24,000 bases of DNA, taken from contig NZ_VUNM01000005.1 of assembly GCF_009695655.1 (NCBI RefSeq), positions 1-24,000 of the forward strand, written 5' to 3'. Within the stretch, counting starts at the first letter, position 1; the number at the start of each line of letters is the position of its first letter. This stretch comes from Sharpea porci (lineage in GTDB: Bacteria > Bacillota_I > Bacilli_A > Erysipelotrichales > Coprobacillaceae). The notes under the pieces were generated by a model. It searched no databases. It was not told where the DNA came from and saw nothing but the letters and a program-made list of their open reading frames with translations. Positions 2,080 through 22,408 of this stretch are shown here, in pieces. The position numbers and the translations under genes were made by a program.

Positions 2080-4533
2080 TTAATCAATAATTGTTCTCTT
2101 CAGCATTTCACAAATACCAGAAACGCCATCTCCTGGCTTCCAGAAAGTGACATAGCCTTCAAGAGAACTTGCTTTTTCAACCAATGATGGCACACTTTCA
2201 TCAACAACAATCCAACATTTATACTGACTATTTTTTGCATCCTGAATCATATTACTAGCTGCACTATGCCCATCTAAAGCAAGAAGCAAGGATGGTCGGC
2301 GCTTAAAGATTTCAAAAGCAAAGCTCTTATAAACACCTAGTGGGGATGATTCAATGGATATGCGTACACCAACATCTTCCTTTTTGATACGTTCTGCTTC
2401 CTTACTTGTCAGCATCTTAGGGACAAAGCTATAGACTTCAAATCCTTTGGCATGATCCAAAAGATATTTCTCATAACCGGACATGCTTGAACCAATCACA
2501 AAGAAGACCTCTTCTTTATTCACACTTTCAATGAGTTCATCAAGAAGATGACATTCATCTTCTTTTAGTTCTGTTTGATGATTGACATTATTAAATGATC
2601 CACCAACAATCACAATAGGAATCTTATGAAGTGGCAATGGATGAATCTTTGTGACAAGAAAGAGAGAAGCTTCAATATTACGGCTTGTAGGCATCAATGT
2701 AATCATATGATGTTTCTCTTTTTCAAGACGTTCATTGTAATAGTTGACCACGCTTTGTGTGCCAAGTGCTTCCTTAAAGTCTTTCATCTTCTCATGAAAT
2801 TCTTGCATAGCTGTATGACAAATCGTCTGCTCAACATCATGCATTTTCTTCATTTCATCAAAGCTTAAGTCAAGCATCCGTTCAAGAGACAACTGCTCAT
2901 CAATGGAATTCGTCCCATAAAGCGCACCACCATCTGTTCCCTGAACGCAGCGAATATCATTTCTTAAATAGTCTTTTAAGGGATGATGCGTTAATTCTGT
3001 CAGGTTGTTAAGTCTTACATTGGATGTAATTTGGAATTCAAGAGCTATTCGATAATCTTTAAGCTTTTCTAAAAGTAGCTTGCCTTTTTTACTATCGAGA
3101 GCAGGCGTATAGAGACCATGACCTAAGCGTACATGGGGAAAGAACTGACCGGGTGCGAGCGCCTTTTCTACTTCAAGCACGCTATTGAGGACATTATCTG
3201 GCAGGGAGTCATTCTCTCCGGCATGGAATCTGATGACAAAGCTAGGAATATCTTTCGCTATAGCGACAATCGCCTGTATAACTGAAGAGAGCTCACGAAT
3301 ATCATTCATTTCTTCACCCACGAAATCACTTCCAGCAACATAGGGATCATTAGCTACAGCTTTTAATACTTGCAGATTTTCATTAAAGACATTCTGACTT
3401 ACCCGATCTTTGACAATCGTCAAAGGAATACGTCTAAAAGCACATAGAAAACGTAATGTTACGCCTGTTTCCTTTGTGATTGCCGGCATGACTTCATGGA
3501 TTTGTGCAAGGGTATGGGCTGCTTCACTTGCCTTGACAAGCGCTGTATCCGATATTTCTGCATAAGTCACTCCAACCTTCTGATAACTTCTTGCAACAAA
3601 AAGTAATTGATCTTGATAAAGAGTATTATAACGATAGACAGGATTTCGACGATCTAAGTCCATTTGTTTTAATGCATTAACAATATCTTCATCGTCAATA
3701 TCTTCAATATGTTCTAAGGCAATAGGATCAAGTACACTTGTCCCTTTGGTAAAGACATAACGATAAATATAGACTTTCTCAAGATTTGTGAAAACAGCCT
3801 GACCATCTTTCATAACAGCGAGTGAAGTTCTGATCTTGGCTATATTCTCTGAAGCATGTTCAAGATTTTCCAGAATGAGACTTGCGAAATTGAGATAGGT
3901 ATGATCATCAATCTTACGATCTAAGTATTTTCCCTTTAATTGACTATAAGCAAATGATCGAGCAATAGTCTGTCTTCGATTTTCTAATAGTGCTCTTTGT
4001 GTAGGGGTGATATTGAGTTGTAGTTTCTTAATATAATAATAAGGATAACGTAACTGATGATGAATAGCTAAGGCAATAAGAATATCGGGCGAAAGATTCG
4101 CAGAACGATGGGTATGAAGATCACTATGGAACTTCACTTCTTTACGAATATAAGTCTTTACAAGTGTCTTCTCAATATCAAGCTTATAGTCCTTAGTCTG
4201 ACTCATCAGAGTTTTCGCAATGGCTGGCACATAGGCCTTACGCTCTATGCGTCCATCAGGATAAATATTTGCCACCTTTGTATTATGGAAACGTAAAATA
4301 TAGACCATTTCATTATCACCATCATAAAAACAAGGCACATCACCTTTAATAATTTTATATCCATAGTCATCATAACGAATTTCTAGCTCACAGACCTTTG
4401 CGAGATTCGTTATTAAATTACCTGTTTGATGATGTGGCGAAGTAATGACATAGGATAAATCATCCCCCTGCATATCAAGTGTAACAATGATATCCTTTTC
4501 TTTATCAAGATAAAACTTTCCAAAATAGGCCAT
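2080..4533 (-). CDS. Multidomain protein with three parts: an unknown N-terminal domain (~aa 1-125), an adenosine/AMP-deaminase-like amidohydrolase domain (~aa 130-560), and a C-terminal Rossmann-like SLOG/LOG/DprA-like domain (~aa 635-817).
   Basis: 817 aa. The ordered deaminase-fold motif series is: FHSDLHTH (HxH, aa 136-142), VAGSDFVGEE, FHAGEN (aa 436-441), RLGHG (aa 469-473), EFQITSNV, and VQGTDGG (aa 530-536). The C-terminus alternates beta strands and glycine-rich loops: IPIVIVGGSF, VFFVIGSSMSGYEKYL, LLLALDGHSAASNMIQDA, CWIVVD. RBS GAGGAG. Confidence 0.75.
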   Translation of the reverse strand: MAYFGKFYLDKEKDIIVTLDMQGDDLSYVITSPHHQTGNLITNLAKVCELEIRYDDYGYKIIKGDVPCFYDGDNEMVYILRFHNTKVANIYPDGRIERKAYVPAIAKTLMSQTKDYKLDIEKTLVKTYIRKEVKFHSDLHTHRSANLSPDILIALAIHHQLRYPYYYIKKLQLNITPTQRALLENRRQTIARSFAYSQLKGKYLDRKIDDHTYLNFASLILENLEHASENIAKIRTSLAVMKDGQAVFTNLEKVYIYRYVFTKGTSVLDPIALEHIEDIDDEDIVNALKQMDLDRRNPVYRYNTLYQDQLLFVARSYQKVGVTYAEISDTALVKASEAAHTLAQIHEVMPAITKETGVTLRFLCAFRRIPLTIVKDRVSQNVFNENLQVLKAVANDPYVAGSDFVGEEMNDIRELSSVIQAIVAIAKDIPSFVIRFHAGENDSLPDNVLNSVLEVEKALAPGQFFPHVRLGHGLYTPALDSKKGKLLLEKLKDYRIALEFQITSNVRLNNLTELTHHPLKDYLRNDIRCVQGTDGGALYGTNSIDEQLSLERMLDLSFDEMKKMHDVEQTICHTAMQEFHEKMKDFKEALGTQSVVNYYNERLEKEKHHMITLMPTSRNIEASLFLVTKIHPLPLHKIPIVIVGGSFNNVNHQTELKEDECHLLDELIESVNKEEVFFVIGSSMSGYEKYLLDHAKGFEVYSFVPKMLTSKEAERIKKEDVGVRISIESSPLGVYKSFAFEIFKRRPSLLLALDGHSAASNMIQDAKNSQYKCWIVVDESVPSLVEKASSLEGYVTFWKPGDGVSGICEMLKRTIID

Positions 4534-4720
4534 ATTTCTTTCTCCTCGTATTTCCCCCTACTTTAACACCTTTCCTATCACAATGAAAGAAAAAGCATAA
4601 AAGAAAAAGATTCATCTTAATAGACATTTCTGAGCACTCATTGTGTTCTCCTCATCAATCAGGATGTGATTGATTAAAAAGAAGGAAACTATGAAAGACT
4701 AAAATATCTACTGCCTCAAA

Positions 4721-4764
4721 AGAAAAAGTGACGACCTCATATACTTTGATTTTGAGATCGTCAC
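4721..4764 (-). terminator. Intrinsic terminator downstream of the aldo/keto reductase gene
   Basis: On the minus strand, GTGACGATCTCA ... TGAGGTCGTCAC forms a 12-bp stem with one G-U/mismatch, followed by TTTTT. Confidence 0.7.
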
Positions 4765-4803
4765 TTTCATCATTTACAAGATACACTTTTCACTACAACA
4801 CAA

Positions 4804-5724
4804 TCATGGCAATGTCTTGCCACTTGCAAGATAGAGATCATACCATTCCTGTCTTGTCAGCTGAATGTTGGTTGCTTCACACATTTCTCTTAAATGAATG
4901 GGTGACGTTGTACCAGAGATTACTTGCATAGAAGCCGGATGTCTTAAGATCCAAGCTACGGCTATAGCAGCTTTTGTCACATGATATTTGTCACTCAGTT
5001 TTGCGAGTTCTTCATTTAATCGTGGGTAGTCAGGATGATCAATAAACGTACCTTCACTCCAGCTTGCCTGTAAAGGGCTCCAGGCTTGAATCATAATTTC
5101 ATTAAAACGGCAAAAATCAAGTACGCCACCATCTTTATCGATTGCGAGGTCTTCAGTCATATTCATATGTAAGCCACTATCGACCATCCCTGAATGAACA
5201 ATAGAGAATTGGAGTTGATTAGCGACAATGGACTGGTTGGCATACATCTGTAAAAGTCTCATCTGGCCAGGCGTGTGATTGGAAACACCAAACTGACATA
5301 CTTTGCCCTGTTTATTTAAGGTGTTGAATGCATCAGCTACTTCCTCATAATCACAAAGGGCATCAGGACGATGTAATAAAAGAAGATCAAGATGATCCGT
5401 ATGCAGTCTTTCTAGCGTTCCATTAACTGCATTGATAATATAATCCTTTGAGAAATCATAACGTTTTCCAGGCACAATGCCACACTTACTCTGAATAATC
5501 ATTTTTTCTCTTAGTTCAGGGCGTTTAGCAAGCACTTCGCCAAAGATTTCTTCACTCTTTCCACCACCATAGATATCCGCATGATCAAAGAAATTAATGC
5601 CACAATCAAGAGCTGTATCAATCAGTTCTTCGACTTCTTGTACACTCTTATTCGCAATGCGCATACAACCCATACCGATGGCAGAAACATGATATTGCGT
5701 ATTAGATAATTGATAATATTTCAT
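4804..5724 (-). CDS. Aldo/keto reductase family oxidoreductase (YdhF-like)
   Basis: 306 aa. Motifs: FDHADIYGGG, HLDLLLLHRPD, GKVCQFGVSNH. RBS AGGAGG. Confidence 0.9.
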   Translation of the reverse strand: MKYYQLSNTQYHVSAIGMGCMRIANKSVQEVEELIDTALDCGINFFDHADIYGGGKSEEIFGEVLAKRPELREKMIIQSKCGIVPGKRYDFSKDYIINAVNGTLERLHTDHLDLLLLHRPDALCDYEEVADAFNTLNKQGKVCQFGVSNHTPGQMRLLQMYANQSIVANQLQFSIVHSGMVDSGLHMNMTEDLAIDKDGGVLDFCRFNEIMIQAWSPLQASWSEGTFIDHPDYPRLNEELAKLSDKYHVTKAAIAVAWILRHPASMQVISGTTSPIHLREMCEATNIQLTRQEWYDLYLASGKTLP

Positions 5725-6967: not shown

Positions 6968-7678
6968 ATGAATCTAAAAGCTATGCGCAGAACAACCATC
7001 ATTCTGCTTATTCTCTCAATTATTATTTATCTCATCCAGATTCTCATCTTTAATGATCCACGGACGACCTTCTTCTATATTCTGCAAGATTTAGCCTTTA
7101 TGCCTATTACGATTGCCTTTGCGACACTCATGGTTGGTGAAGTGCTCAATTGGCGTGAAAAGAATGAACGCAAGGAAAAGACACGTATGTTGACAAGTAC
7201 ATTCTTTACAGAAATAGGTGCTATCCTTGCCCATTATACACTTTCTATGACCCAAGAGGATGATTTTTTGCATCTTGTGGCAAGAAATGGCGGCCATATT
7301 GACAACATGACAGAAGATGAAATCATCCAAAAACTTGAACATCATAAAATCAAAGTTAAGCTCAATAAAGAAGGCTATGAAAAAGCACGTAATCTCATCC
7401 TTTCTAACCAGACAAACCTTCTTGTCATCAGTTCCAACCCCTTAATACTTGACCACGAATATTTTACGGAAATGCTTTGGGGTGTTTTTCATTTAATTGA
7501 TGAATTCCGTTTGCGAGGAGAATGGGAGGCGCTCTCTCCAACTGATATTGCTCATCTTAATGCGGACTTTGCCAAGGTCTTACGCTTAATGCTGATTAAT
7601 TGGATTGGTAATAGTGAATATCTCGCTAAAAACTATCCTGCTTTCTATAATGTTGCCTTCAATAAACTTGATTATTAA
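6968..7678 (+). CDS. Hypothetical membrane-anchored protein: two N-terminal TM helices plus a helical cytoplasmic domain
   Basis: 236 aa. RBS GTGAGG. Divergent from the CDF gene. I recognise no family motif. Confidence 0.6.
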   Translation: MNLKAMRRTTIILLILSIIIYLIQILIFNDPRTTFFYILQDLAFMPITIAFATLMVGEVLNWREKNERKEKTRMLTSTFFTEIGAILAHYTLSMTQEDDFLHLVARNGGHIDNMTEDEIIQKLEHHKIKVKLNKEGYEKARNLILSNQTNLLVISSNPLILDHEYFTEMLWGVFHLIDEFRLRGEWEALSPTDIAHLNADFAKVLRLMLINWIGNSEYLAKNYPAFYNVAFNKLDY

Positions 7679-11495: not shown

Positions 11496-13733
11496 TTATA
11501 GGAATTGATGATGGGCCCAATGATGAATGCGTTTTTTCATTCCTTCAATATCAAGAACACCGTAGGCAAAAGATTTGCGGACAAGTTCATCAGGAAGATA
11601 CTGATCATATTTTTCAAAGACGGGCATTTCTTTTTCATACAGTAAATCAAGAGGATCAAAGTCCTTCTGGGCTTCTTCTTCAAGAATGTTAAAGAATGTT
11701 TCTTCATCTGCATCCATCGTAAACATGATGTAGTAAGGGCGCAGGCTATTGAGGCCCTTCAGACGCAATCTGTTGCGGCACTTTATTTTCAAGAAACGCT
11801 CCATCGCAAGAAAACCATAGCTGCCAAGCCAAGGGAAAAGCACCCACATCTTACCACCTATATTAACAAGAGGATGATGGATGATGTCGGCATTCTTAAA
11901 AGTATGCCGTGCTTCTTTTAAACGATAGATGGCTTGATTCATAAGATAGGGATAACTTTTGTCACTACTTAAAACATCATACATTTTCTCTAAAATACGC
12001 GTATGAATATCACCAGGAACATCACCAAAATAAGCCGGAATATTGCCCTTGACAAGATTGCAATAAACCTCACGGCGATGATGATCCACTTCTTCTACAA
12101 CCCATACTCTTCCCGCAATCGCAATCTTATCACCAATTGGTGGTGGCTTGACAATCGTCCCTAAGACTTCGCTTCCAGCATGAACTGTATATTCAAGATT
12201 TTCCGCAAAGACGGCAAAGAATTTATGATTGTTGACAACTCGTTCACCAGCAATGCCGACTATCAGTCCACCATTCTCTGTTTGATTAATATGATCGATA
12301 GAAAGCAAATGTCTTAAAAGAATCCGATAGTCATCCTGGGAAACATTATGGAAGATGGATAGTGTCAGCACTCTTGAAGCAAGTTCTGCTGCACTCATCT
12401 CTCCAAGAGAAGCGAGAATGCTCATTGTTTGATGATAAAGCAAGGAATAAGGGATTTTGTTTTTGATTGGCGGTTCAACAAAGCGCTCTTCAATATAGAG
12501 CTGGATGAGGGCAATGCCCTGAATAAGGTACCAAGGGATGCTTTCGGGTAAAAGAGCTCTTGCTTCAGGATGATCTTCACGCATCACAAACCACATTTCA
12601 CTTGGTGCCCCTCTTCTGCCTGTTCTGCCCATTCTTTGCAGGAAGCTCGAGACTGTAAAGGGGGCATCTATCTGAAAAGCACGTTCAAGCTTACCAATAT
12701 CAATACCTAATTCAAGTGTTGCGGTTGCACAGATGGACATAGAAGAATGTTCATCCTTCATGTCTTCTTCAGCACTTTCCCGATAGCTTGAAGAGAGATT
12801 GCCATGATGAATGAGAAAACGGTCAGGTTCATGATTAGCTTCACAATATTGTCTTAAATGTTGGCAGACACTTTCACATTCCTCACGACTATTCGTAAAA
12901 ATTAAACACTTTTTCCCTCTGGTATGTTCAAAGATATAGCCCATTCCTGGATCAGATGCAAAGGGGGCTTTGTCAGTTGGTGCATCAAGAGCATGAACTT
13001 CCTCCACCATTTCTTCCTCTCCTGCCTGGGGAGCCTGATTAAAGAAGTGCTCCATCGATAGACGCCATACTTCCTTGCCACTATCAAATTTTGGAATAAT
13101 ACTGCCTCGATGACTCCCTACATTTAAAAAATCAGCTGCCATTTTCATATCACCAATCGTGGCCGATAAGCCAATACGACGGGGATCACAACCTGCTTCC
13201 TGACAAAGACGTTCGATTAAGCAGAATGTCTGACCTCCTCGATCCTGTCTTAAAAACGCATGTAATTCATCAATGACAATAAAACGCAAATCATGGAAAA
13301 GTGAAGGTATTTCCATATGTTTTCTTAGCATCAAAGCTTCTAGTGATTCAGGGGTAATCTGTAAGATACCTTGAGGTTTCTTCAGCAGTTTTCTTTTTGC
13401 CGTGGCGGGGGCATCGCCATGCCATCTGGTAACTGTAATATCGCTCTCTTCACATATTTCCTCTAATCGTTCATACTGATCATTGATTAATGCTTTGAGG
13501 GGAGCAATATAGAGAACACCTACGGAAGAGGGAGGATCTTCTTCAAGAAGAGTGAGAATAGGAAAGAAAGCTGCTTCTGTTTTACCCGATGCTGTCGAAG
13601 CGCAAATCAGGACATTCTTATCTGTATGAAAGATAGCATCTCCTGCTCCATTCTGGACAGAACGTAAAGAGTGCCAATTATGGCGATAAATATAATTCTG
13701 AATGAAGGGAGCATAACGATCAAAGATATTCAT
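11496..13733 (-). CDS. sngC: SF2 DExH-box helicase (Lhr-like core plus ~350-aa C-terminal extension); third gene of a Shango-type triad
   Basis: 745 aa. Motif I ASTASGKTEA, motif II VIDELH, motif III SAT, motif VI QRMGRTGRRG. Its RBS (TAGGAG) overlaps the stop codon of the upstream ATPase gene. Confidence 0.75.
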   Translation of the reverse strand: MNIFDRYAPFIQNYIYRHNWHSLRSVQNGAGDAIFHTDKNVLICASTASGKTEAAFFPILTLLEEDPPSSVGVLYIAPLKALINDQYERLEEICEESDITVTRWHGDAPATAKRKLLKKPQGILQITPESLEALMLRKHMEIPSLFHDLRFIVIDELHAFLRQDRGGQTFCLIERLCQEAGCDPRRIGLSATIGDMKMAADFLNVGSHRGSIIPKFDSGKEVWRLSMEHFFNQAPQAGEEEMVEEVHALDAPTDKAPFASDPGMGYIFEHTRGKKCLIFTNSREECESVCQHLRQYCEANHEPDRFLIHHGNLSSSYRESAEEDMKDEHSSMSICATATLELGIDIGKLERAFQIDAPFTVSSFLQRMGRTGRRGAPSEMWFVMREDHPEARALLPESIPWYLIQGIALIQLYIEERFVEPPIKNKIPYSLLYHQTMSILASLGEMSAAELASRVLTLSIFHNVSQDDYRILLRHLLSIDHINQTENGGLIVGIAGERVVNNHKFFAVFAENLEYTVHAGSEVLGTIVKPPPIGDKIAIAGRVWVVEEVDHHRREVYCNLVKGNIPAYFGDVPGDIHTRILEKMYDVLSSDKSYPYLMNQAIYRLKEARHTFKNADIIHHPLVNIGGKMWVLFPWLGSYGFLAMERFLKIKCRNRLRLKGLNSLRPYYIMFTMDADEETFFNILEEEAQKDFDPLDLLYEKEMPVFEKYDQYLPDELVRKSFAYGVLDIEGMKKRIHHWAHHQFL

Positions 13734-13742
13734 AATGAACTC

Positions 13743-15089
13743 CTAAATTGTAAACTCGGCAAAGCCATCATTGGTTTTATTAGAAAGGACATCACTTTCA
13801 TGATAATTGAATTCTTCACTATTTAAGAGATCTTTCACTTTCATATCTGGATGTTGATAGAGAATATCAAGAAGTTCAATAAAATCTCTAATGACTTCAC
13901 GAGGAGTAATATTGCTGCTTGCACCAATACGCTGATATTCAATTTGAATAAAGAGAGCAATATCATCCGTTGTCACTTTCTTGTCATAACGATACATTGT
14001 CGCATGAATATCGGCAAGCTTTTCACATAATACAAGCATTTCTTCAGGATTCAAAGGCTCAAGATGAATAACGGGGGCAAGTAAGTCACGGACGCCTTCC
14101 TTGGCAAACTTCCCTTCAGCAAGTCGAGAACGCAATGCCTCATAGCTATAGACACCACGACGTTTGTCTTCTAATGCCTGTGGCGTTGCACCCATAATAA
14201 TGCCAAGATGCTTTGCTTTCCCTTGAAGTGTATCATTATACATCATCAAGATCTTTTCATAATTGTATTGACGGGTAATGGCATTAGGAATCTTATAGAT
14301 ATTGACAAGTTCATCAATCATAATCATCATCCCAGCATAACCAGCCAGCGTGAAAAAAGACGCAAAAAGCTTAATATATTCATACCAATCATCATCCGTA
14401 ATAATGATATTGACACCCAGTTCATTTTTAGCTTCTCTTTTAAGGCTATATTCACCCCTGAACCACTTCAAAACAAGTGCCTTGGTTTCATCATCACCTT
14501 GTAAATATGCATGATAGTAACGTGAAAGCAAGGATGCAAACTCGAAACCATGAACAAGTTCGCTCATTTGGCTTGTGACTTCATAAATTTTCTGATCGAC
14601 TAGACGACTTAACGCTATGTCACCAACCTTTAAACCTGACTGTGTCACAGCTTCACTTTGAATCTGAGAAATCCAGCGATCAAGCACCAAAGCCAAAGCT
14701 CCACCTTCAGGCTTTGTTTTCGTGGAAAGATTAGCAATCAGCTCACGATAAGTCGCTAATCCCTGTCCTCTTGTCCCTTGCAAACGTCTTTCTGGAGACA
14801 AATCTGCATCAGCAACAATAAAGCCCTGATCCATCACATAATTACGAATACTTTGTATCAGAAAACTCTTTCCTGAGCCATAGCGTCCCACGATAAAACG
14901 GAAACTTGCGCCACCATCCTTAATCATTTCAACATCATGTAATAACGCTTCTATTTCATTCTTTCTCCCCACCGTAATATAGGGCAGGCCAATTCTAGGA
15001 ACCACCCCACCCTTTAGGGAATTCATGACAATCGAAGCGATACGTTTAGGTATTTTTCTATTTACGTCCATAAAGTAATTCTTCAACAT
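13743..15089 (-). CDS. sngB: DUF2791-type P-loop ATPase (BREX BrxC/BrxD-like ATP-binding domain); second gene of a Shango-type triad
   Basis: 448 aa. N-terminal GGVVPRIGLPYITVGRKNEIEAL, Walker A GRYGSGKS, Walker B MMIMIDELV. The start is uncertain: ATG at 15089 or at 15071. Either one overlaps the end of the upstream gene. Confidence 0.7.
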   Translation of the reverse strand: MLKNYFMDVNRKIPKRIASIVMNSLKGGVVPRIGLPYITVGRKNEIEALLHDVEMIKDGGASFRFIVGRYGSGKSFLIQSIRNYVMDQGFIVADADLSPERRLQGTRGQGLATYRELIANLSTKTKPEGGALALVLDRWISQIQSEAVTQSGLKVGDIALSRLVDQKIYEVTSQMSELVHGFEFASLLSRYYHAYLQGDDETKALVLKWFRGEYSLKREAKNELGVNIIITDDDWYEYIKLFASFFTLAGYAGMMIMIDELVNIYKIPNAITRQYNYEKILMMYNDTLQGKAKHLGIIMGATPQALEDKRRGVYSYEALRSRLAEGKFAKEGVRDLLAPVIHLEPLNPEEMLVLCEKLADIHATMYRYDKKVTTDDIALFIQIEYQRIGASSNITPREVIRDFIELLDILYQHPDMKVKDLLNSEEFNYHESDVLSNKTNDGFAEFTI

Positions 15090-16863
15090 CCTCTCTATAA
15101 TCTTCTATCAATACAAGACGATTATCTTCTATTTCAACAATATTATCACCTATTTCATCATAATAAGCTTCATTCATCTCATCAGCAACTACTTCAATAA
15201 AGAGATGATGTTCTTTTAAGAATGAAGTTACATCTTCATTCTTGAGAAGCTTTTTGATTATAACTTCAGTCATCTGATCCTGATCATCTATTTCTTTTTC
15301 AACAACTGGTTTGACCTCCACTTCCTTCTCTTCTTCTGTCAATAAGCTTTCTCTTGTCAAAGCTGCTTCATAACGTATCTTTTGCAGGCTGGCAAGATTG
15401 AAATCCATTTGTTTATGTTTTTCTTCATAGTCTTTGATTGCCATTTCTTCATAAGATTCCATAAAATCAAAAGCATCATCGACTTTAAGCTTTCTACCTA
15501 CTTCAAAATAGGCACGAAGAAAACGGTCTATTTCTCTGATCAAGCCTTTGATGAATTTAGAATCGCATTTTTCAATTTGAAAAGCTTTGATATTCCAGTT
15601 GTTATATTTATCTAAATGATAAATGCGAATAGGATCAATATCATAAGTGAGAATGTCCTTTTCTTTATTTCTTTCATATAGGGCATTGGAAACTGGATAA
15701 AAGCTTGTCGTGCGCTGTCCTTTGAAGATAAAACTGAAGAGTGTTTTCTTCTTTATGCGATAATCTTTAAAAGCATTCTTGATGATCATTCCAGCTATTT
15801 CCTTTGTCTTTTCAGGTTCTTTTTTATAGACTGGCGATTTATAAAAAGAACGATCAGAAAAAGCCATGATACTTTCAAAGATTTCTGAAGGTGTGTGTTC
15901 TTTGACTTTCTTTAAAGTCATCAAATTTTGATCAAGCTTTAACATGCCGTCAGGAAAATAGGCTTTTACGCGTTCAATAGGAAAATGCATATCTAAGGCA
16001 AGTTCAAAAATCCACTCTTCAACCCTATCTTCCATCCGTTGATCATGAGCTATTGGTCTTACAAAACGCTCTACGAACTCCTCGAGCTTGTCAAAACGCT
16101 CTTGTACATCTTTACAGCCTATTCCATTTAATAGCTCATAGACATAAAGATAACTAAGGGAAGTGGCTATGGGAAGATATTCTCCCTCCCTGACTTTCTT
16201 ACGCCATGAAAAATAACCTCTTAATATTTCTGGTGGCATATCATAATAACAAGGAAAATAACTCTTATAGTCTTCGCTCCAGGGATAATCATCTTCATAG
16301 TCAACCATAAACTTTCCCTGTCTTATAAAATTAGGCACCCATTCATAATAAGCATTACTTTTCGCTAAGGCATACATTTCTCTTAACTTCTCAGGAATCT
16401 CTTTAGTAGTGGTTTTGGGATTTTGAGGATGAGCAGCATGAATATGTTTTCGTCTTCTGATTTCTTTTTTAGGGATAGCTGTTTCATGATAGCTAGAATC
16501 ATCATGATCATCTTCAAGGATAATTAGATGATCATCATAAATAAGGAAGACTTGGTCAATTAATTGAAAAAGCAATCGTGTATCATGAATTTTATTCATA
16601 TCAAGAGTGAGAAACTTACCAATGCTTTCCATCTTGACATCTTTTATAGCCTGCTGCAGAGATAGATCCAATCCCAATTCATCTAACAGAAGATTACAAT
16701 AAGCCTTCTGACTACTTGTTTCCTGATCAAAGAAAGTGATGAAATAAATCATGCATTTCTTCGTTTTCTTATCATTAACTAAATAAAGATTCTGTTGTAT
16801 TTCAAGATTACAAGAGCTTGCATATTTATTTTTAATATAATCTAGTGCCTCATTAATCAACAT
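15058..16863 (-). CDS. sngA: TerB_N / TerB_C domain protein with an extra ~125-aa N-terminal domain; first gene of a Shango-type triad
   Basis: 601 aa. TerB_N-like signature YFSWRKKVREGEYLPIATSLSYLYVYELLNGIG (aa 217-249). Acidic C-terminal region (LLTEEEKEVEV..., DYREDVEELL) resembling TerB_C. RBS AAGGAAGGG. Confidence 0.65.
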   Translation of the reverse strand: MLINEALDYIKNKYASSCNLEIQQNLYLVNDKKTKKCMIYFITFFDQETSSQKAYCNLLLDELGLDLSLQQAIKDVKMESIGKFLTLDMNKIHDTRLLFQLIDQVFLIYDDHLIILEDDHDDSSYHETAIPKKEIRRRKHIHAAHPQNPKTTTKEIPEKLREMYALAKSNAYYEWVPNFIRQGKFMVDYEDDYPWSEDYKSYFPCYYDMPPEILRGYFSWRKKVREGEYLPIATSLSYLYVYELLNGIGCKDVQERFDKLEEFVERFVRPIAHDQRMEDRVEEWIFELALDMHFPIERVKAYFPDGMLKLDQNLMTLKKVKEHTPSEIFESIMAFSDRSFYKSPVYKKEPEKTKEIAGMIIKNAFKDYRIKKKTLFSFIFKGQRTTSFYPVSNALYERNKEKDILTYDIDPIRIYHLDKYNNWNIKAFQIEKCDSKFIKGLIREIDRFLRAYFEVGRKLKVDDAFDFMESYEEMAIKDYEEKHKQMDFNLASLQKIRYEAALTRESLLTEEEKEVEVKPVVEKEIDDQDQMTEVIIKKLLKNEDVTSFLKEHHLFIEVVADEMNEAYYDEIGDNIVEIEDNRLVLIEDYREDVEELLYGRK

Positions 16864-16875
16864 GTTGACCCTTCC

Positions 16876-17439
16876 TTATTGTTCTTGTTGGATTTTGGTT
16901 TCGGTCTCCTTTAAAATCTCATCACGCAATTTACTTAGCCAGGAAGAAAATTCCACAACATCAAAGGCATAATGTCGTTGCAAATCATATTCATGATCTT
17001 CCCATGAATCAATGGGCGCTTCATTATGTTGGATGACGGCTTCAAGCTTATCGAGGGCTTTGAAGATTTTGGCTTCTTTGCTTTGACATGCTTCCATTTC
17101 TTGATAAAGCGCATGCATATTTTGCGATAATTGATCAGGAAGTGTATTAAGAAATACATCAAGTAGCTTAGCTTCCTGTTGACGATCTTCATCGGTCTTT
17201 AAGAAGACAGGAATATCACCAGTAAAACATTCACCAAGATCATGAATCACACACATACGCATGACCTTATTTATATCAACATCGCTAAACGTCTCTTCGA
17301 GAAGTAAAGCCATCATGGCTATCCGCCAGCTATGTTCAGCTACACTCTCTATGCGGTTATTTTTTGTGACACAATGTCTTGGTGTGTCTTTGAGCTCATT
17401 AATAATATGAACGATTTCTAAATAATCTTTAGGTGTCAT
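16876..17439 (-). CDS. HD-domain phosphohydrolase, YfbR-like (5'-deoxynucleotidase family)
   Basis: 187 aa. ESVAEHSWRIAMMALLL and VIHDLGECFTGDIP motifs (H...HD...D metal ligands). Its ATG overlaps the upstream stop (ATGA). Its own stop is 12 nt from the sngA-like start. Confidence 0.85.
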   Translation of the reverse strand: MTPKDYLEIVHIINELKDTPRHCVTKNNRIESVAEHSWRIAMMALLLEETFSDVDINKVMRMCVIHDLGECFTGDIPVFLKTDEDRQQEAKLLDVFLNTLPDQLSQNMHALYQEMEACQSKEAKIFKALDKLEAVIQHNEAPIDSWEDHEYDLQRHYAFDVVEFSSWLSKLRDEILKETETKIQQEQ

Positions 17440-18062: not shown

Positions 18063-19118
18063 CTAATCCTCCTTGACAAACCAATTTTGTGTCTTATTTG
18101 CGATATTTACTAATGTCAACATAACAGGAACTTCTGTCAAAACCCCCACTGTTGTAGCCAGGGCTGCTGGGCTTGTTGTCCCAAATAAGGCAATGGCAAC
18201 CGCAACTGCTAATTCAAAGAAATTGGATGCACCAATCATTCCAGCTGGTGCAGCAATATCAAATGGCAAATGGATGGCTTTGGCAGAAAGATAAGCAATA
18301 AAGAAAATAAGGAATGTCTGTATGATCAGTGGTATCGCAATCAATAGGATATGGATGGGATTACTGATGATGACAGCGGACTGAGATGTAAAAATCAAGA
18401 CTAATGTCAATAAGAGACCAGCTGTTGTTACATAGTCAAATTTATGAACAAAGACATTTTCAAGATAGTCTTTTCCCTTCTTCTTCACCATTATAACACG
18501 AGTTAGTATACCTCCGGCTAGTGGAATCACAACAAAGAGAAAAATACTGACAAATAATGTACTATAAGGCACACTGACCTTTGAAACGCCAAGTAAGAAC
18601 TTCACAATAGGCACAAAGGCAAAAAGAATAATACAATCATTGGTAGCCACCTGAACAACAGTGTAGGCAGCACGGCCATGTGTTAAAGTGCTCCAGACAA
18701 AGACCATTGCGGTACAAGGTGCGGCACCAAGTAATACGGCTCCAGCAAGATACTGACGCGCTAAATTTTGGGGAATAAAACTTTTAAAAACATAGAAGAG
18801 AAAGAATGAAGCAAGCAGGTACATAGTAAAAGGCTTAATAAGCCAGTTGACAATCCATGTCAAAAAGAGACCTTTTGGATTATCTTTGATTTGACGAATG
18901 CTTTGAAAGTCAACTTTGATCATCATAGGATAAATCATAATCCAGATCAAAATCGCAATCGGGATGGATATCCCGGCAATCTGCATTTTATTCAACACTT
19001 GGACAACGGCAGGAAAGAAGTGCCCAATCATCACTCCCGCAATCATACATAATATGACCCAGACACTTAAATAACGCTGGAATATAGAAATATCTTTATT
19101 CTTCACCATCTTATTCAT
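18063..19118 (-). CDS. acr3: ACR3 family arsenite efflux transporter
   Basis: 351 aa, polytopic. Conserved LLGAAPCTAMV motif with the essential Cys. Overlaps arsR by 8 nt. Confidence 0.9.
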   Translation of the reverse strand: MNKMVKNKDISIFQRYLSVWVILCMIAGVMIGHFFPAVVQVLNKMQIAGISIPIAILIWIMIYPMMIKVDFQSIRQIKDNPKGLFLTWIVNWLIKPFTMYLLASFFLFYVFKSFIPQNLARQYLAGAVLLGAAPCTAMVFVWSTLTHGRAAYTVVQVATNDCIILFAFVPIVKFLLGVSKVSVPYSTLFVSIFLFVVIPLAGGILTRVIMVKKKGKDYLENVFVHKFDYVTTAGLLLTLVLIFTSQSAVIISNPIHILLIAIPLIIQTFLIFFIAYLSAKAIHLPFDIAAPAGMIGASNFFELAVAVAIALFGTTSPAALATTVGVLTEVPVMLTLVNIANKTQNWFVKED

Positions 19119-19422
19119 CCTCCTGACAACAATCCTTTTTTTGACAAGCTTGAGAACAGTTCAATGAATCAATGAATGTTCTAAAGGCCGTTAATGTTTC
19201 ACAATTTAATGAATAATAAGTATTCTTCCATTGCTTTCTCGTTGTGACGAGATTGCATTCAACCAAGACTTTCATATGATGTGAGAGCGTTGGTTGGGTA
19301 ATCTGGAAAGCTTCGAGTAGCTTACATGCACAAAGCTCCCCTCCTGTCAACATTTTGACAATCTTGAGACGATGGGCATCGGATAACGCCTTACATATTA
19401 ATGATGCATCAATTTCATTCAT
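19111..19422 (-). CDS. arsR: ArsR/SmtB family metalloregulator
   Basis: 103 aa. ELCACKLLE metal-sensing CxC motif followed by a wHTH (ITQPTLSHHMKVL). Cys-rich C-terminal tail. Confidence 0.9.
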   Translation of the reverse strand: MNEIDASLICKALSDAHRLKIVKMLTGGELCACKLLEAFQITQPTLSHHMKVLVECNLVTTRKQWKNTYYSLNCETLTAFRTFIDSLNCSQACQKKDCCQEDE

Positions 19423-19431
19423 AATAACCCC

Positions 19432-20427
19432 CTAAATAAGTAATGGCTGCAAAATATTAAAGAGATAACCAACAACAATAATACCTACCACACAAATAGC
19501 GATAAAAATACCAAGCAGCTTAGGCTTAATCGCTTTTCTTAACATGATCAATGAAGGCAGACTAAGAGTTGTAACAGCCATCATGAAACTTAGGACAGTA
19601 CCAAGAAGAGCTCCCTTTGAAAGCAATGCTTCAGCAACAGGAATACTGCCAAATATATCAGCATACATGGGCACACCCACAATTGTGGCAAGAACAACAC
19701 CAAATGGGTTCTTGTTGCCAAGAATCGTTTCAATCATATCTTCAGGGATCCAGTTATGAATAATCGCACCAATACCAACTCCTAACAGAATATAAGGAAA
19801 GACTTTCTTGAAAGTGGAACTCATTTGTTCATAGGCATAATCAAGACGATCTTTCTTTGTAAGTGTCACACCCCTCGTTTCGACTGCTCGGGCATTCTTG
19901 ATGAAGTCCTCAACTTCATCATCAAGCTTTAATTTCTCAATAAGCGAGCCACCAATAATAGCAATCAACAATCCCATAATTACATAGACAATCGCTACAC
20001 GATAGCCAAAAATGCCCATTAATAGAATCAGGCTGCCAAGATCAACCATTGGTGAAGAAATCAGGAATGAGAAAGTCACACCAAGAGGTAAACCGGCACT
20101 CGTAAAGCCAATAAAGAGTGGAATTGATGAACACGAACAAAATGGTGTCACCGTTCCCAATAATGCCCCTATCATGTTCGCAAAGATTCCATGAAAACGC
20201 CCCATAATCTTACGACTTCTTTCTGGGGGAAAATAGCTCTGAATGTAGGAAATGAGGAATATCAATAGGCAAAGTAGTATTGTGATCTTTATGACATCAT
20301 AGAAAAAGAACTGTAATGAGCCACCTATTTTTGTTTTGATATTGATGCCTATTGTTTGAAGTAAGAAGGCTACAAGTCTATTGAGCCAATGCATGGCAAG
20401 AATTTCATTCTGGATAAATGTTCCCAT
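19432..20427 (-). CDS. arsP: ArsP-type permease (DUF318 family; organoarsenical efflux-like)
   Basis: 331 aa, polytopic. Signature TPFCSCSSIPLF vicinal-Cys motif. Confidence 0.8.
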   Translation of the reverse strand: MGTFIQNEILAMHWLNRLVAFLLQTIGINIKTKIGGSLQFFFYDVIKITILLCLLIFLISYIQSYFPPERSRKIMGRFHGIFANMIGALLGTVTPFCSCSSIPLFIGFTSAGLPLGVTFSFLISSPMVDLGSLILLMGIFGYRVAIVYVIMGLLIAIIGGSLIEKLKLDDEVEDFIKNARAVETRGVTLTKKDRLDYAYEQMSSTFKKVFPYILLGVGIGAIIHNWIPEDMIETILGNKNPFGVVLATIVGVPMYADIFGSIPVAEALLSKGALLGTVLSFMMAVTTLSLPSLIMLRKAIKPKLLGIFIAICVVGIIVVGYLFNILQPLLI

Positions 20428-20869: not shown

Positions 20870-22009
20870 CTAGGCTGCCCCGGCAAGCAGCCGCAGGCCT
20901 TCATTCAGGATATTGATGGCTGCGTTCTGGTCACGGCCTATCGTGAGTCCGCAGTCTCATGTCATCTTGCGGATAGACAAATCCTTCATCTCGGGATGCA
21001 ATGTACCGCAGCAATGACATATCTGTGATGATGGATACCACTTATCTACCTTAACAAGATACTTGTTCCTGTCGGACAGCTTATACTCAAGCATAGACAG
21101 GAACATGCCGTATCCGTTATCCAGGGTCGCTTTGCCGTTGCCGAACCCGCGATTCGCCATAGACTTCATGTCTAGAGATTCCACGCATACAACATCATAC
21201 CGATTGGCTATCTCAGCAGATATTTTATGCAGGTTGTCCAGACGCTGATTTGATATGTGTCTATGAATTTTATTTACTTTACGGAGCTGCTTGATATAGT
21301 TATTGGATTTATCTTCATGCTTTTTATAGCCTTGCATGCGGGACAGCCTGCGCTGTGCCTTGGCAAGCCTGTCATGGCTTTCACGGTAGTACTTATGATT
21401 AGTACCAACATTACCGTTGCTGTCTACATATAAGCCGTCAGATGCATAATCCAGTCCAATGGCATTGGCTTTATCCGCTATATAAGTATTTTCCACTTTA
21501 TCAAATTCAAAAAGCACAGAAATATAATACTTGCCATCTGATTCCTGAGATACAGTAGCCGACTTGATAATCCAGCTGCTGTCAGGGATACGATGGATGA
21601 CAGCTTTGACCTTGCCAATCTTAGGAAGCCTGATGTACTTGTTGTCTGTAATCGCAACTGTCCCTTTCTGATTGTTTGTCGTGTAGGACCTGCGGCTGTG
21701 CTTTGCAGACTTGAACTTAGGAAATCCGTTTTTCTTCTTGCGAGATCTGTCAAATGTGTTGCGAAATGCTGCCTGCAGGTTCATCTGTACGTTCGCAAGG
21801 GCAAGACTGTCTACATCCCTGAGATAAGGATATTCATCCTTATACCGAGCAGGCGTTACATCAGGAAACTTGCCAGTTGCTTTATAGCCTTCAATCTTAT
21901 CGGAAAGCATGAGATTATAGACCTTGCGGCAGCAGCCAAAGGTCTTAGAGAACATAATGTTTTGTTCAGCTGTAGGATATACTCTGTACTTAATTGCCTT
22001 GTTTGCCAT
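20870..22009 (-). pseudogene. tnpB: IS200/IS605-family TnpB (OrfB, RuvC-like RNA-guided nuclease) interrupted by an in-frame TGA
   Basis: RuvC-I AIGLDYA; RuvC-II VVCVESLDMKSM; zinc-finger first half CHCCG. A TGA falls at 20957-20959. The same frame then continues DCGLTIGRDQNAAINILNEGLRLLAGAA* (RuvC-III) to a TAG at 20870-20872. Strong RBS GGGAGGGAAGG. Confidence 0.8.
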
Positions 22010-22257
22010 CCTTCCCTCCCTGTGACTCTATATATTGCTTAATGATATCTGCTGTGGCCCCGCCTGCGGTCAGCAGGCAGAAGCTCTGTGACCAGAACAT
22101 CTCTTTCCATAAGGATTTGCGTATTTCAGGAAATTCCTTCTTTATGATACGGCTGCTCGCTGATTTGTAGGCATTAATAATCCTTCCTGATACATCTGGC
22201 CGTATCGTAGCCCATGTTCTTTGTATGGGCCATGTACCTGACCGTGTCCTGAGCCAT
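21990..22257 (-). pseudogene. tnpA: IS200-type Y1 (HUH) transposase TnpA remnant with an internal deletion/frameshift
   Basis: The ATG at 22257 follows RBS GGAAGGGAG and encodes MAQDTVRYMAHTKN (IS200 TnpA N-terminal AHTK(W)N pattern). That frame then stops after 27 codons. The C-terminal two-fifths (IRPDVSGRIINAYKSASSRIIKKEFPEIRKSLWKEMFWSQSFCLLTAGGATADIIKQYIESQ, including the catalytic Tyr) is in another frame. The CKYHIV...HxH(U) block in between is absent. Confidence 0.7.
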
Positions 22258-22286
22258 GGCTGTCGTCTCCCTTCCTGTACAGCAAT

Positions 22287-22315
22287 ATTATACCATGAGC
22301 ATTGCTCACCGTCCA
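22287..22315 (-). promoter_or_regulatory. Candidate promoter internal to the IS left end, driving tnpA/tnpB
   Basis: On the minus strand, TGGACG (plus 22310-22315), a 17-nt spacer, then TGG-TATAAT (extended -10; TATAAT is plus 22287-22292). It sits ~30 nt upstream of the tnpA remnant ATG. Confidence 0.5.
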
Positions 22316-22351
22316 CCTTGTGCAGGCGATATGAAAGGCAGGTGCCGGCCT

Positions 22352-22375
22352 TGCTCATGACTGAAGTCATGAGCA
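22352..22375. repeat. Perfect palindrome in the IS left end (stem-loop of unknown role)
   Basis: T-GCTCATGACT-ga-AGTCATGAGC-A forms an 11-bp stem with a 2-nt centre. Confidence 0.6.
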
Positions 22376-22408
22376 TGCAGCGGGCAGGTTGTCAGCAAAA
22401 CGCCGTGT

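Follow-up and report, generated by a model that had tools for sequence, protein, structure and literature searches.

The stretch of DNA analyzed here, the window, comprises 24,000 nucleotides of the Sharpea porci contig NZ_VUNM01000005.1 (positions 1 to 24,000 of the forward strand; assembly GCF_009695655.1). The gene under study is a single open reading frame (ORF) on its minus strand. The encoded protein is identical to WP_154514598.1, which carries the public name 'adenosine deaminase', Sharpea porci, and which NCBI and UniRef both call adenosine deaminase. A sequence-only reading of this DNA had described the product as an orphan fusion of an adenosine deaminase (ADA)-like domain with a C-terminal domain of the SLOG/LOG/DprA type. 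We built an alignment of 30 family sequences (55–94% identical), which is the basis for all statements on invariance below and for the AlphaFold2 (AF2) model. The full-length model, with a mean predicted local distance difference test (pLDDT) score of 83 and a predicted template-modelling (pTM) score of 0.77, showed three domains. The gene and the parts of its product (residues given as amino acids, aa) lie as follows.

2080..4533, minus: complete deaminase ORF, 817 aa plus stop, ATG start
4141..4533, minus: N-terminal domain, aa 1-131, beta-rich in the AF2 model
2698..4140, minus: ADA-family (beta/alpha)8 domain with C-terminal helical linker, aa ~132-612
4108..4116, minus: HxH metal ligands H140-T-H142, within model strand 137-142 (DLHTH is aa 138-142)
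3574..4089, minus: helical stretch that follows the first barrel strand, aa ~149-320, ~110 residues more than in canonical ADA
3214..3225, minus: HAGE, aa 437-440; H437 metal ligand, E440 catalytic acid
3115..3123, minus: GHG, aa 471-473; H472 catalytic His
2926..2940, minus: GTDGG, aa 532-536; D534 metal ligand, G535 at the second-Asp position of TDD
2083..2646, minus: SLOG-superfamily domain, aa ~630-817, alpha/beta
2590..2604, minus: GGSFN, glycine-rich loop that follows strand 1 of SLOG, aa 644-648; all residues invariant but F, which nearly is

Three domains of the deaminase protein

A_deaminase (PF00962) was the only Pfam family found in the full-length protein (aa 314–564, E = 5e-13, 49.2 bits against a cut-off of 27). 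At E ≤ 1 there was no other, and so neither an AMP-deaminase family nor CARF. In the model the barrel starts at aa ~135 with D138-L-H140-T-H142 in its first strand, and a long helical linker reaches aa ~610. When the full model was compared with the PDB by Foldseek, it matched ADAs, Cad1/CAAD, ADAL/MAPDA, adenine deaminase, ADA2 and an ADGF-type AMP deaminase with E-values of 5e-8 to 4e-5; for 6n9m, 6n91, 2pgf, 1add and 8z3k the probability was 1.00 and the target-normalized template-modelling (TM) score 0.5–0.68. The matches also included ADA-fold structures for adenine (3rys) and N6-methyl-AMP (6iv5, 6j4t), as well as 1fkx, a mutant mouse ADA structure.

The ordered deaminase motifs picked out by the sequence-only reading were all invariant in the alignment, among them VAGSDFVGEE (aa 399–408) and TSN (aa 503–505). 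The residues H140, H142, H437, E440, H472, D534 and G535 did not vary, and HMMER alignments to solved ADAs put HAGE, GHG, TSN and T533-D534 on canonical catalytic positions, with every metal ligand present. From the PF00962 score, the fold matches and the invariant catalytic residues, the ADA domain is predicted to be catalytically competent. The same HMMER alignments placed G535 opposite the second Asp of (T/S)DD, in agreement with the earlier claim that TDD has become TDG. That second Asp (D296 in mouse ADA) hydrogen-bonds the purine N7. Judging from the alignments, a universal Gly in place of the N7-contacting Asp points to altered purine recognition; AF2 modelled the loop at G535 (aa 535–538) at low confidence, as it did the loops at aa 242–250, 369–379, 440–443 and 508–512. 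A distant branch of relatives (22–34% identical; see below) also keeps HAGE, GHG and TDG, the last motif there reading GTDGYG.

The large insert proposed after the first strand was borne out, with 172 residues lying between the HxH motif (aa 142) and the residue aligned to Pfam profile position 78 (aa 314). AF2 models the region mostly as helices, and it bears a family-specific invariant motif, KDGQAVFTN.EKVY..RYVF.K. All of the NCBIfam Add equivalogs, TIGR01430 and PRK09358 among those tested, scored below their cut-offs, at 15–35 bits against 216–530 (the best reached 35 bits against 459, and TIGR01430 28.5 against 216.6).

The best-conserved part of the protein is its N-terminal domain, which the sequence-only reading had not singled out, with a mean column identity of 74%, compared with 65% for the whole protein (across several families and two phyla) and 54–60% for the SLOG domain. 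Invariant in this domain are P33, H35, G38–I41, K99–A100, P103–I105 and M110–K114. Profile searches with it gave no Pfam match and no usable PDB sequence match. These PDB searches and those with the C-terminal domain gave a single hit, to proteasome subunit Rpn10 at E ~1, which we attribute to chance.

Modelled separately, aa 614–817 reached a pLDDT of 92 and a pTM of 0.90. The top 50 PDB Foldseek matches of this region all belonged to the SLOG superfamily but for LpoA (probability 0.25) and ATU2773 (probability 0.41). The best were the N-terminal MHR domains of TRPM4/3/8/2 (E from 5.6e-5) and molybdenum cofactor (Moco) carrier or binding proteins, and the further SLOG matches listed were of LOG type (YvdD, At5g11950 and C. 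glutamicum LOG), DprA and YgdH (9us2). The SLOG/LOG/DprA-like domain seen in the sequence-only reading was therefore right at the level of fold. Besides the glycine-rich loop there is a second conserved SLOG loop, ALDG(N/H)S...N..Q (aa 752–764); the placement of both loops at strand ends comes from the AF2 secondary structure. The catalytic motif of LOG enzymes is PGGxGTxxE. It is absent here, and the corresponding loop reads ALDG(N/H)SAA.N(M/L)IQ(D/E)A.

Pfam searches with 29 C-terminal domains at E ≤ 10 detected no SLOG, LOG (Lysine_decarbox) or DprA family, giving only scattered chance matches, and a sequence profile of the domain found no match in the PDB. Because there is neither a Pfam SLOG match nor a PDB sequence match, the C-terminal domain is, by model and profile searches, SLOG at the level of fold and a new family at the level of sequence. 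A profile of the SLOG domain was also run against 1.84 billion representative proteins. This gave 162 matches, nearly all of them fragments of the ADA-SLOG family, and an ADA domain was present in all seven matches of at least 627 aa that were scanned against Pfam. Where SLOG occurs as a separate gene, it lies directly downstream of the ADA gene. By these searches, ADA and SLOG are an old and exclusive pairing.

Distribution, inheritance and gene neighborhood

A protein database search returned >5,500 matches, the top 120 of which were all full-length (791–896 aa) and 55–94% identical. At least 560 species-representative genomes, one per GTDB species, encode full-length relatives (48–94% identical), and neighborhood analyses were carried out on the 80 best loci among them. 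The hosts of these 80 loci are rumen and gut Lachnospiraceae, Erysipelotrichaceae (Sharpea, Solobacterium and Faecalitalea), Oscillospiraceae, Ruminococcaceae and Coriobacteriia (Atopobiaceae); metagenome loci with relatives include human-gut assemblies. A Duodenibacillus locus (L055), the sole proteobacterial one among the 80, was considered as a possible third phylum and rejected as probably a mis-binned contig; it has five neighbor clusters in common with the Lachnospiraceae locus L037 and with L047.

Identity above 50% between proteins of Firmicutes and of Actinobacteria (Coriobacteriia) implies horizontal spread of the gene. Within lineages it is stable, and closely related species keep the same gene neighborhood. 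Between S. porci and S. azabuensis the deaminase is 93.1% identical and lies in perfect synteny, and the genes flanking it are mostly 92–95% identical, with two at 99–100%. Collections of phage records (50,697), plasmid records (72,556) and IMG/VR contigs (2.9 million) were searched as well and yielded no relative.

When 949 ORFs, taken from the window and the 80 loci, were clustered, no conserved operon partner emerged; the commonest neighbor cluster, a generic ABC-type ATPase, was found in 12 of the 80 loci. The 125 immediate flanking proteins gave 111 Pfam families, mostly housekeeping (amidase, TrmO, glycoside hydrolases, iPGM and pyruvate kinase). PADLOC showed no enrichment of defence genes among the flanking proteins, where its only matches were to generic radical-SAM and helicase proteins. 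No RdrA, CARF, cyclase or TIR partner was present in the window or the 80 loci, no cas genes were seen in the window or beside the gene in those loci, and no purine-metabolism genes were conserved nearby.

The signals around the start of the gene lie as follows.

4542..4547, minus: Shine-Dalgarno sequence GAGGAG, 8 nt ahead of the deaminase ATG
4534-4720, minus: presumed promoter region, intergenic, between the hairpin and the deaminase gene
4721..4767, minus: terminator-like hairpin and U-tract at the 3' end of the upstream aldo/keto reductase gene

As the aldo/keto reductase gene ends in this hairpin and U-tract (folding energy, dG, −22.3 kcal/mol; z = −5.4 against shuffles), the deaminase gene is taken to begin its own transcription unit. 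Downstream, pepF (Peptidase_M3) follows after 62 nt. No riboswitch or leader RNA reached the gathering score upstream of the deaminase gene in the window, and an RNA-family scan of 4450-4900 gave chance-level matches only, with no purine riboswitch. The GC content across the gene (0.36–0.39) is the same as that of its surroundings, with no anomaly. Since it has no partner, no defence enrichment around it, no phage, plasmid or IMG/VR copy and no riboswitch, the main family is a solitary, chromosomally fixed gene; in Sharpea and most of the family it behaves as such rather than as a mobile defence module.

These results sharpen several earlier statements. The neighbors named by the sequence-only reading, pepF and an aldo/keto reductase gene, were as described, and the lack of an RdrA, CARF or cyclase neighbor extends from the window to the 80 loci. 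'Orphan' is a wrong description where homologues are concerned, but it is apt for partners, none of which is conserved. That reading had also considered a vertically inherited core gene with conserved metabolic neighbors; we found the vertical inheritance but not the neighbors.

Other parts of the window hold the following.

6968-7678, plus: predicted membrane protein of 236 aa that matches no Pfam family, syntenic and 95% identical in S. azabuensis
11496-16863, minus: co-directional genes for a DEAD/ResIII helicase (745 aa), a BrxC/BrxD-family ATPase (PF10923, E = 9e-169) and a TerB_N/TerB_C protein (601 aa)
16876-17439, minus: HD_3/YfbR-like phosphohydrolase, next after the TerB/ATPase/helicase genes
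18063-20427, minus: ArsR-family regulator with an ArsP-type permease on one side and an SBF (ACR3-like) transporter on the other, a probable operon for resistance to arsenic or metalloids
20957-22376, minus: IS200/IS605 element with Y1 transposase TnpA (128 aa) and TnpB/OrfB with a Cas12f-like TNB domain (350 aa)

The TerB, ATPase and helicase genes are a candidate defence or DNA-processing module. They lie ~7 kb from the deaminase gene, with housekeeping genes between.

A distant low-GC branch

The distant relatives, on contigs of 0.26–0.36 GC, have ADA and SLOG either fused (773–1,181 aa) or split (700 and 261 aa in L085; 597 and 318 aa in L082). Two arrangements were recognized.

L081:3-4019, L082:6777-11396, L084:1-4063, L085:5356-9285, L131:1-2198 and L135:7419-15146: cassettes with 'u' and 'd' proteins
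L139:4023-9933, L137:2-6940 and L140:6281-9084: clostripain subgroup, with ADA (503-524 aa) and SLOG (241 aa) separate or fused (797 aa)

Encoded upstream is the 'u' protein, in which a weakly Zn-phospholipase-C-like N-terminus goes with a YGFENxYG module; certain contigs have it joined to the N-terminal end of the deaminase. Encoded downstream is 'd', a protein of ~155 aa with an amphipathic basic helix at its end. The L084 cassette also holds Mob_Pre and TnpV. In L135 a divergent SecA-like ATPase of 886 aa (12035-14695) lies between two copies of 'd', directly downstream of a u-ADA-SLOG fusion of 1,181 aa. In the clostripain subgroup, a clostripain-family protein (Peptidase_C11) and a zinc-ribbon protein precede the deaminase in L137 and L139, and a conserved protein of 132–137 aa follows ADA/SLOG in L139 and L140. 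PADLOC gave no match for the partners in the distant branch.

Upstream of a split ADA/SLOG pair we also noted a protein of 283 aa (L085:2568-3419 and L114:276-1127) with, by eye, a SIR2-like N-terminal GGGSGLSTAAG. This protein had no Pfam record and no PADLOC match.

Searches with tblastn found neither 'u' nor 'd' proteins in the main-family loci. Homology of the 'u' module to the N-terminal domain of the main family was considered and rejected (hhalign probability 0.1%). The distant branch has the look of a conflict or mobile system and may tell of the family's ancestry, but it is no direct evidence on the role of the Sharpea gene.

Comparison with known systems and proposed mechanism

Nucleotide-pool editing by adenosine deaminases (Cad1, RADAR) is a recently emerged immune strategy, and SLOG domains sense nucleotide signals (ThsA, TRPM2). 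Among known systems, it is Cad1/CAAD of type III CRISPR, which converts ATP to ITP, that the Sharpea protein would most resemble in the way it works. Both join an ADA-fold effector and a Rossmannoid nucleotide sensor in one polypeptide. Cad1 gave the best PADLOC match (CARF_ADA, E = 1.9e-8), and its structures 8z3k, 9of1, 9mmw and 9c6f were among the top fold matches. The likeness to Cad1 drawn by the sequence-only reading thus finds support, CARF-ADA being the closest defence profile, though the match covers profile positions 337–580 only, the deaminase part. The putative sensor of the Sharpea protein is SLOG and C-terminal, whereas that of Cad1 is CARF and N-terminal. The Sharpea protein also differs in its unrelated beta-rich N-terminal domain, its helical insert of ~110 residues and its TDG motif, and its gene is chromosomally fixed and highly conserved, with no CRISPR or Cas10 neighborhood. 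Without a CARF domain or a CRISPR context, it falls outside the Cad1 family.

ThsA (Thoeris) is a SIR2-SLOG protein, and other SLOG-sensor effectors appear in the Burroughs/Aravind classification. The fusion of a SLOG-fold domain to an enzymatic effector is common to ThsA and the Sharpea protein at the level of fold, and this use of SLOG is the only resemblance. The Sharpea effector is an ADA rather than a SIR2, TIR or transmembrane domain; there is no ThsB/TIR neighbor in the 80 loci, no PADLOC match to ThsA, no Pfam SLOG family and no ThsA structure among the top 50 matches. RdrB of RADAR is a protein of ~800 aa that has the ADA fold with large insertions and works with the ATPase RdrA; it is not known to have a SLOG domain. 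The Sharpea protein is of similar size and likewise has an ADA fold with a large insert, but PADLOC gave no RdrB match at E ≤ 1 and no RdrA-like ATPase lies beside the gene in the 80 loci.

For the C-terminal domain the closest structures are TRPM MHR1/2 (LSDAT) and the Moco carrier protein (E 6e-5 to 1e-3). These are non-catalytic SLOG domains that bind ADP-ribose (ADPR), ATP or Moco. Their identity to the Sharpea domain is 11–17%, and their partner domains and biology are different. In concept the protein is also akin to allosteric AMP catabolism (eukaryotic AMP deaminase, bacterial Amn and the ppGpp-regulated PpnN/YgdH), in which adenine nucleotides are degraded under nucleotide control, and YgdH (9us2) and an ADGF-type AMP deaminase (9nte) were among the fold matches. 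It differs from those enzymes in domain composition and in having no AMP-deaminase Pfam family at E ≤ 1. In the searchable literature we found no description of an ADA-SLOG or ADA-LSDAT fusion, the SLOG survey of Burroughs et al. 2015 (NAR) aside, where an earlier mention is possible. Sensor-gated nucleotide-modifying enzymes are already known; what is new here is the combination of sensor and effector, which also brings in two unassigned sequence families.

The earlier frame of a ligand-gated nucleotide deaminase or a metabolic salvage enzyme remains the right one. Within it, we give an even chance to a stand-alone three-domain enzyme that is a ligand-gated adenine-nucleotide deaminase with a SLOG sensor, Cad1-like in its logic. 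Such an enzyme would be cytoplasmic, and its metal-dependent ADA-fold domain would act on an adenine nucleotide or nucleoside, the candidates for deamination being ATP, dATP, AMP and modified adenine compounds. The deaminase would be switched on or off when SLOG, at the C-terminus, binds a ligand derived from a nucleotide. In Cad1, ligand on the sensor shifts the catalytic His, and a hexamer is required (PMC11645235); gating here would probably proceed, as there, through rearrangement of the oligomer or of the active-site loops. We infer what class of substrate is used, that SLOG acts as a sensor and which way the regulation runs. That SLOG would bind a ligand and gate the deaminase is proposed because its best structural relatives bind ligands, the LOG motif is missing and several loops flanking the active site are modelled as flexible. 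The substrate is most plausibly an adenine nucleotide, although with TDG a modified purine is conceivable. A gene that behaves as chromosomally fixed makes an endogenous nucleotide of metabolism or stress a more likely ligand than the product of a linked sensor gene, and for this reason we favor a physiological role in the control of the nucleotide pool, energy charge or stress and place a dedicated anti-phage role second.

Several observations weigh against this reading. The N-terminal domain, as the most conserved part, could itself be the sensor, and SLOG might have a catalytic or a purely structural role; the Foldseek E-values for SLOG are modest (6e-5 to 2e-2, with TM scores of 0.55–0.7). 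The alignments show the N7-binding Asp to be lost without exception, which means that something other than a plain adenine nucleotide may be the substrate.

As an alternative, the protein could be a single-protein anti-phage or abortive-infection effector, in which SLOG or the N-terminal domain senses an infection-derived nucleotide, either made or modified by the phage or coming from an unlinked TIR, cyclase or CRISPR system, and ATP or dATP is converted to ITP or dITP with growth arrest. The pairing of a sensor with ADA is already established in immunity (Cad1; PMC11645235), SLOG domains are known as immune sensors, for example in ThsA (PMC11204291), and the Cad1 family supplies both the best PADLOC match and some of the top fold matches. 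The horizontal transfer implied between Firmicutes and Coriobacteriia would suit such a system, as would the small cassettes of the distant branch (with small proteins, Mob_Pre/TnpV, or a clostripain-type peptidase and zinc ribbon) and the candidate defence cluster ~7 kb away in the window. We nevertheless regard it as unlikely, and the immune effector suggested by the sequence-only reading gained no support from context. The gene is absent from the phage, plasmid and viral-contig collections, its flanks in the 80 loci are housekeeping genes with no sign of a defence island, and within Sharpea it keeps its synteny and has diverged much as the genes beside it have. For a defence gene, conservation at 65% mean column identity, over several families and two phyla, would be unusually strong. 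At E ≤ 1 PADLOC reported only CARF_ADA, and so no RdrB or ThsA model, and the accessory proteins of the distant branch are missing from all main-family loci. The context favors a fixed chromosomal function.

Another alternative is metabolic: a bifunctional enzyme of purine salvage or degradation, with SLOG acting as a LOG/PpnN-like nucleotide N-glycosidase that frees a base or processes a nucleotide and the ADA-fold domain deaminating its product, such as adenine or an adenine modified at N6 or in the ring that comes from RNA, tRNA or plant cytokinins. This would suit a nucleic-acid-rich rumen and gut niche, and the family is confined to rumen and gut anaerobes. The housekeeping-like chromosomal context and vertical inheritance fit a metabolic enzyme, the altered TDG suggests a non-standard purine substrate, and the structural matches include LOG proteins and YgdH/PpnN for one domain and the adenine and N6-methyl-AMP enzymes for the other. 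It becomes quite improbable in view of the missing PGGxGTxxE, with ALDG(N/H)S..N..Q in the equivalent loop, the lack of a Lysine_decarbox/LOG profile match at E ≤ 10, and best fold matches that are non-catalytic (TRPM and the Moco carrier protein); nor are there conserved purine-metabolism neighbors or an upstream purine riboswitch. That the protein is simply a housekeeping adenosine deaminase, an Add orthologue with decorative extra domains, agrees with its database name and its PF00962 match, and we consider it very improbable. All of the Add equivalogs fell far below their cut-offs, there is no N7-binding Asp, the 60% of the protein not covered by the Pfam match is more conserved than the catalytic core, and the distribution is niche-restricted rather than universal.

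We tentatively raise the possibility, doubtful as it is, of an undescribed class of signalling enzyme, common among gut and rumen bacteria, in which SLOG, perhaps with the N-terminal domain, reads a nucleotide signal and ADA rewrites the adenine-nucleotide pool. In this tentative scheme the signal might be a second messenger or a nucleotide of infection or stress, and the outcome might be conversion of ATP to ITP or destruction of a modified or 7-substituted adenine nucleotide. The protein might then be a domesticated single-gene relative of Cad1/RADAR chemistry that can do without a linked sensor gene, and the low-GC cassette branch might be the ancestral, conflict-system form.

The family joins ADA and SLOG in a widespread gene that is now annotated merely as 'adenosine deaminase'. 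The identity of its substrate and ligand could give function to the N-terminal and SLOG sequence families and explain the loss of the N7-binding Asp. If it is simply a salvage enzyme, a widespread mis-annotation would still be corrected. If it is sensor-gated, it could show gated deamination of ATP or AMP outside defence loci, for example in energy charge, dormancy or purine turnover in anaerobic gut communities.

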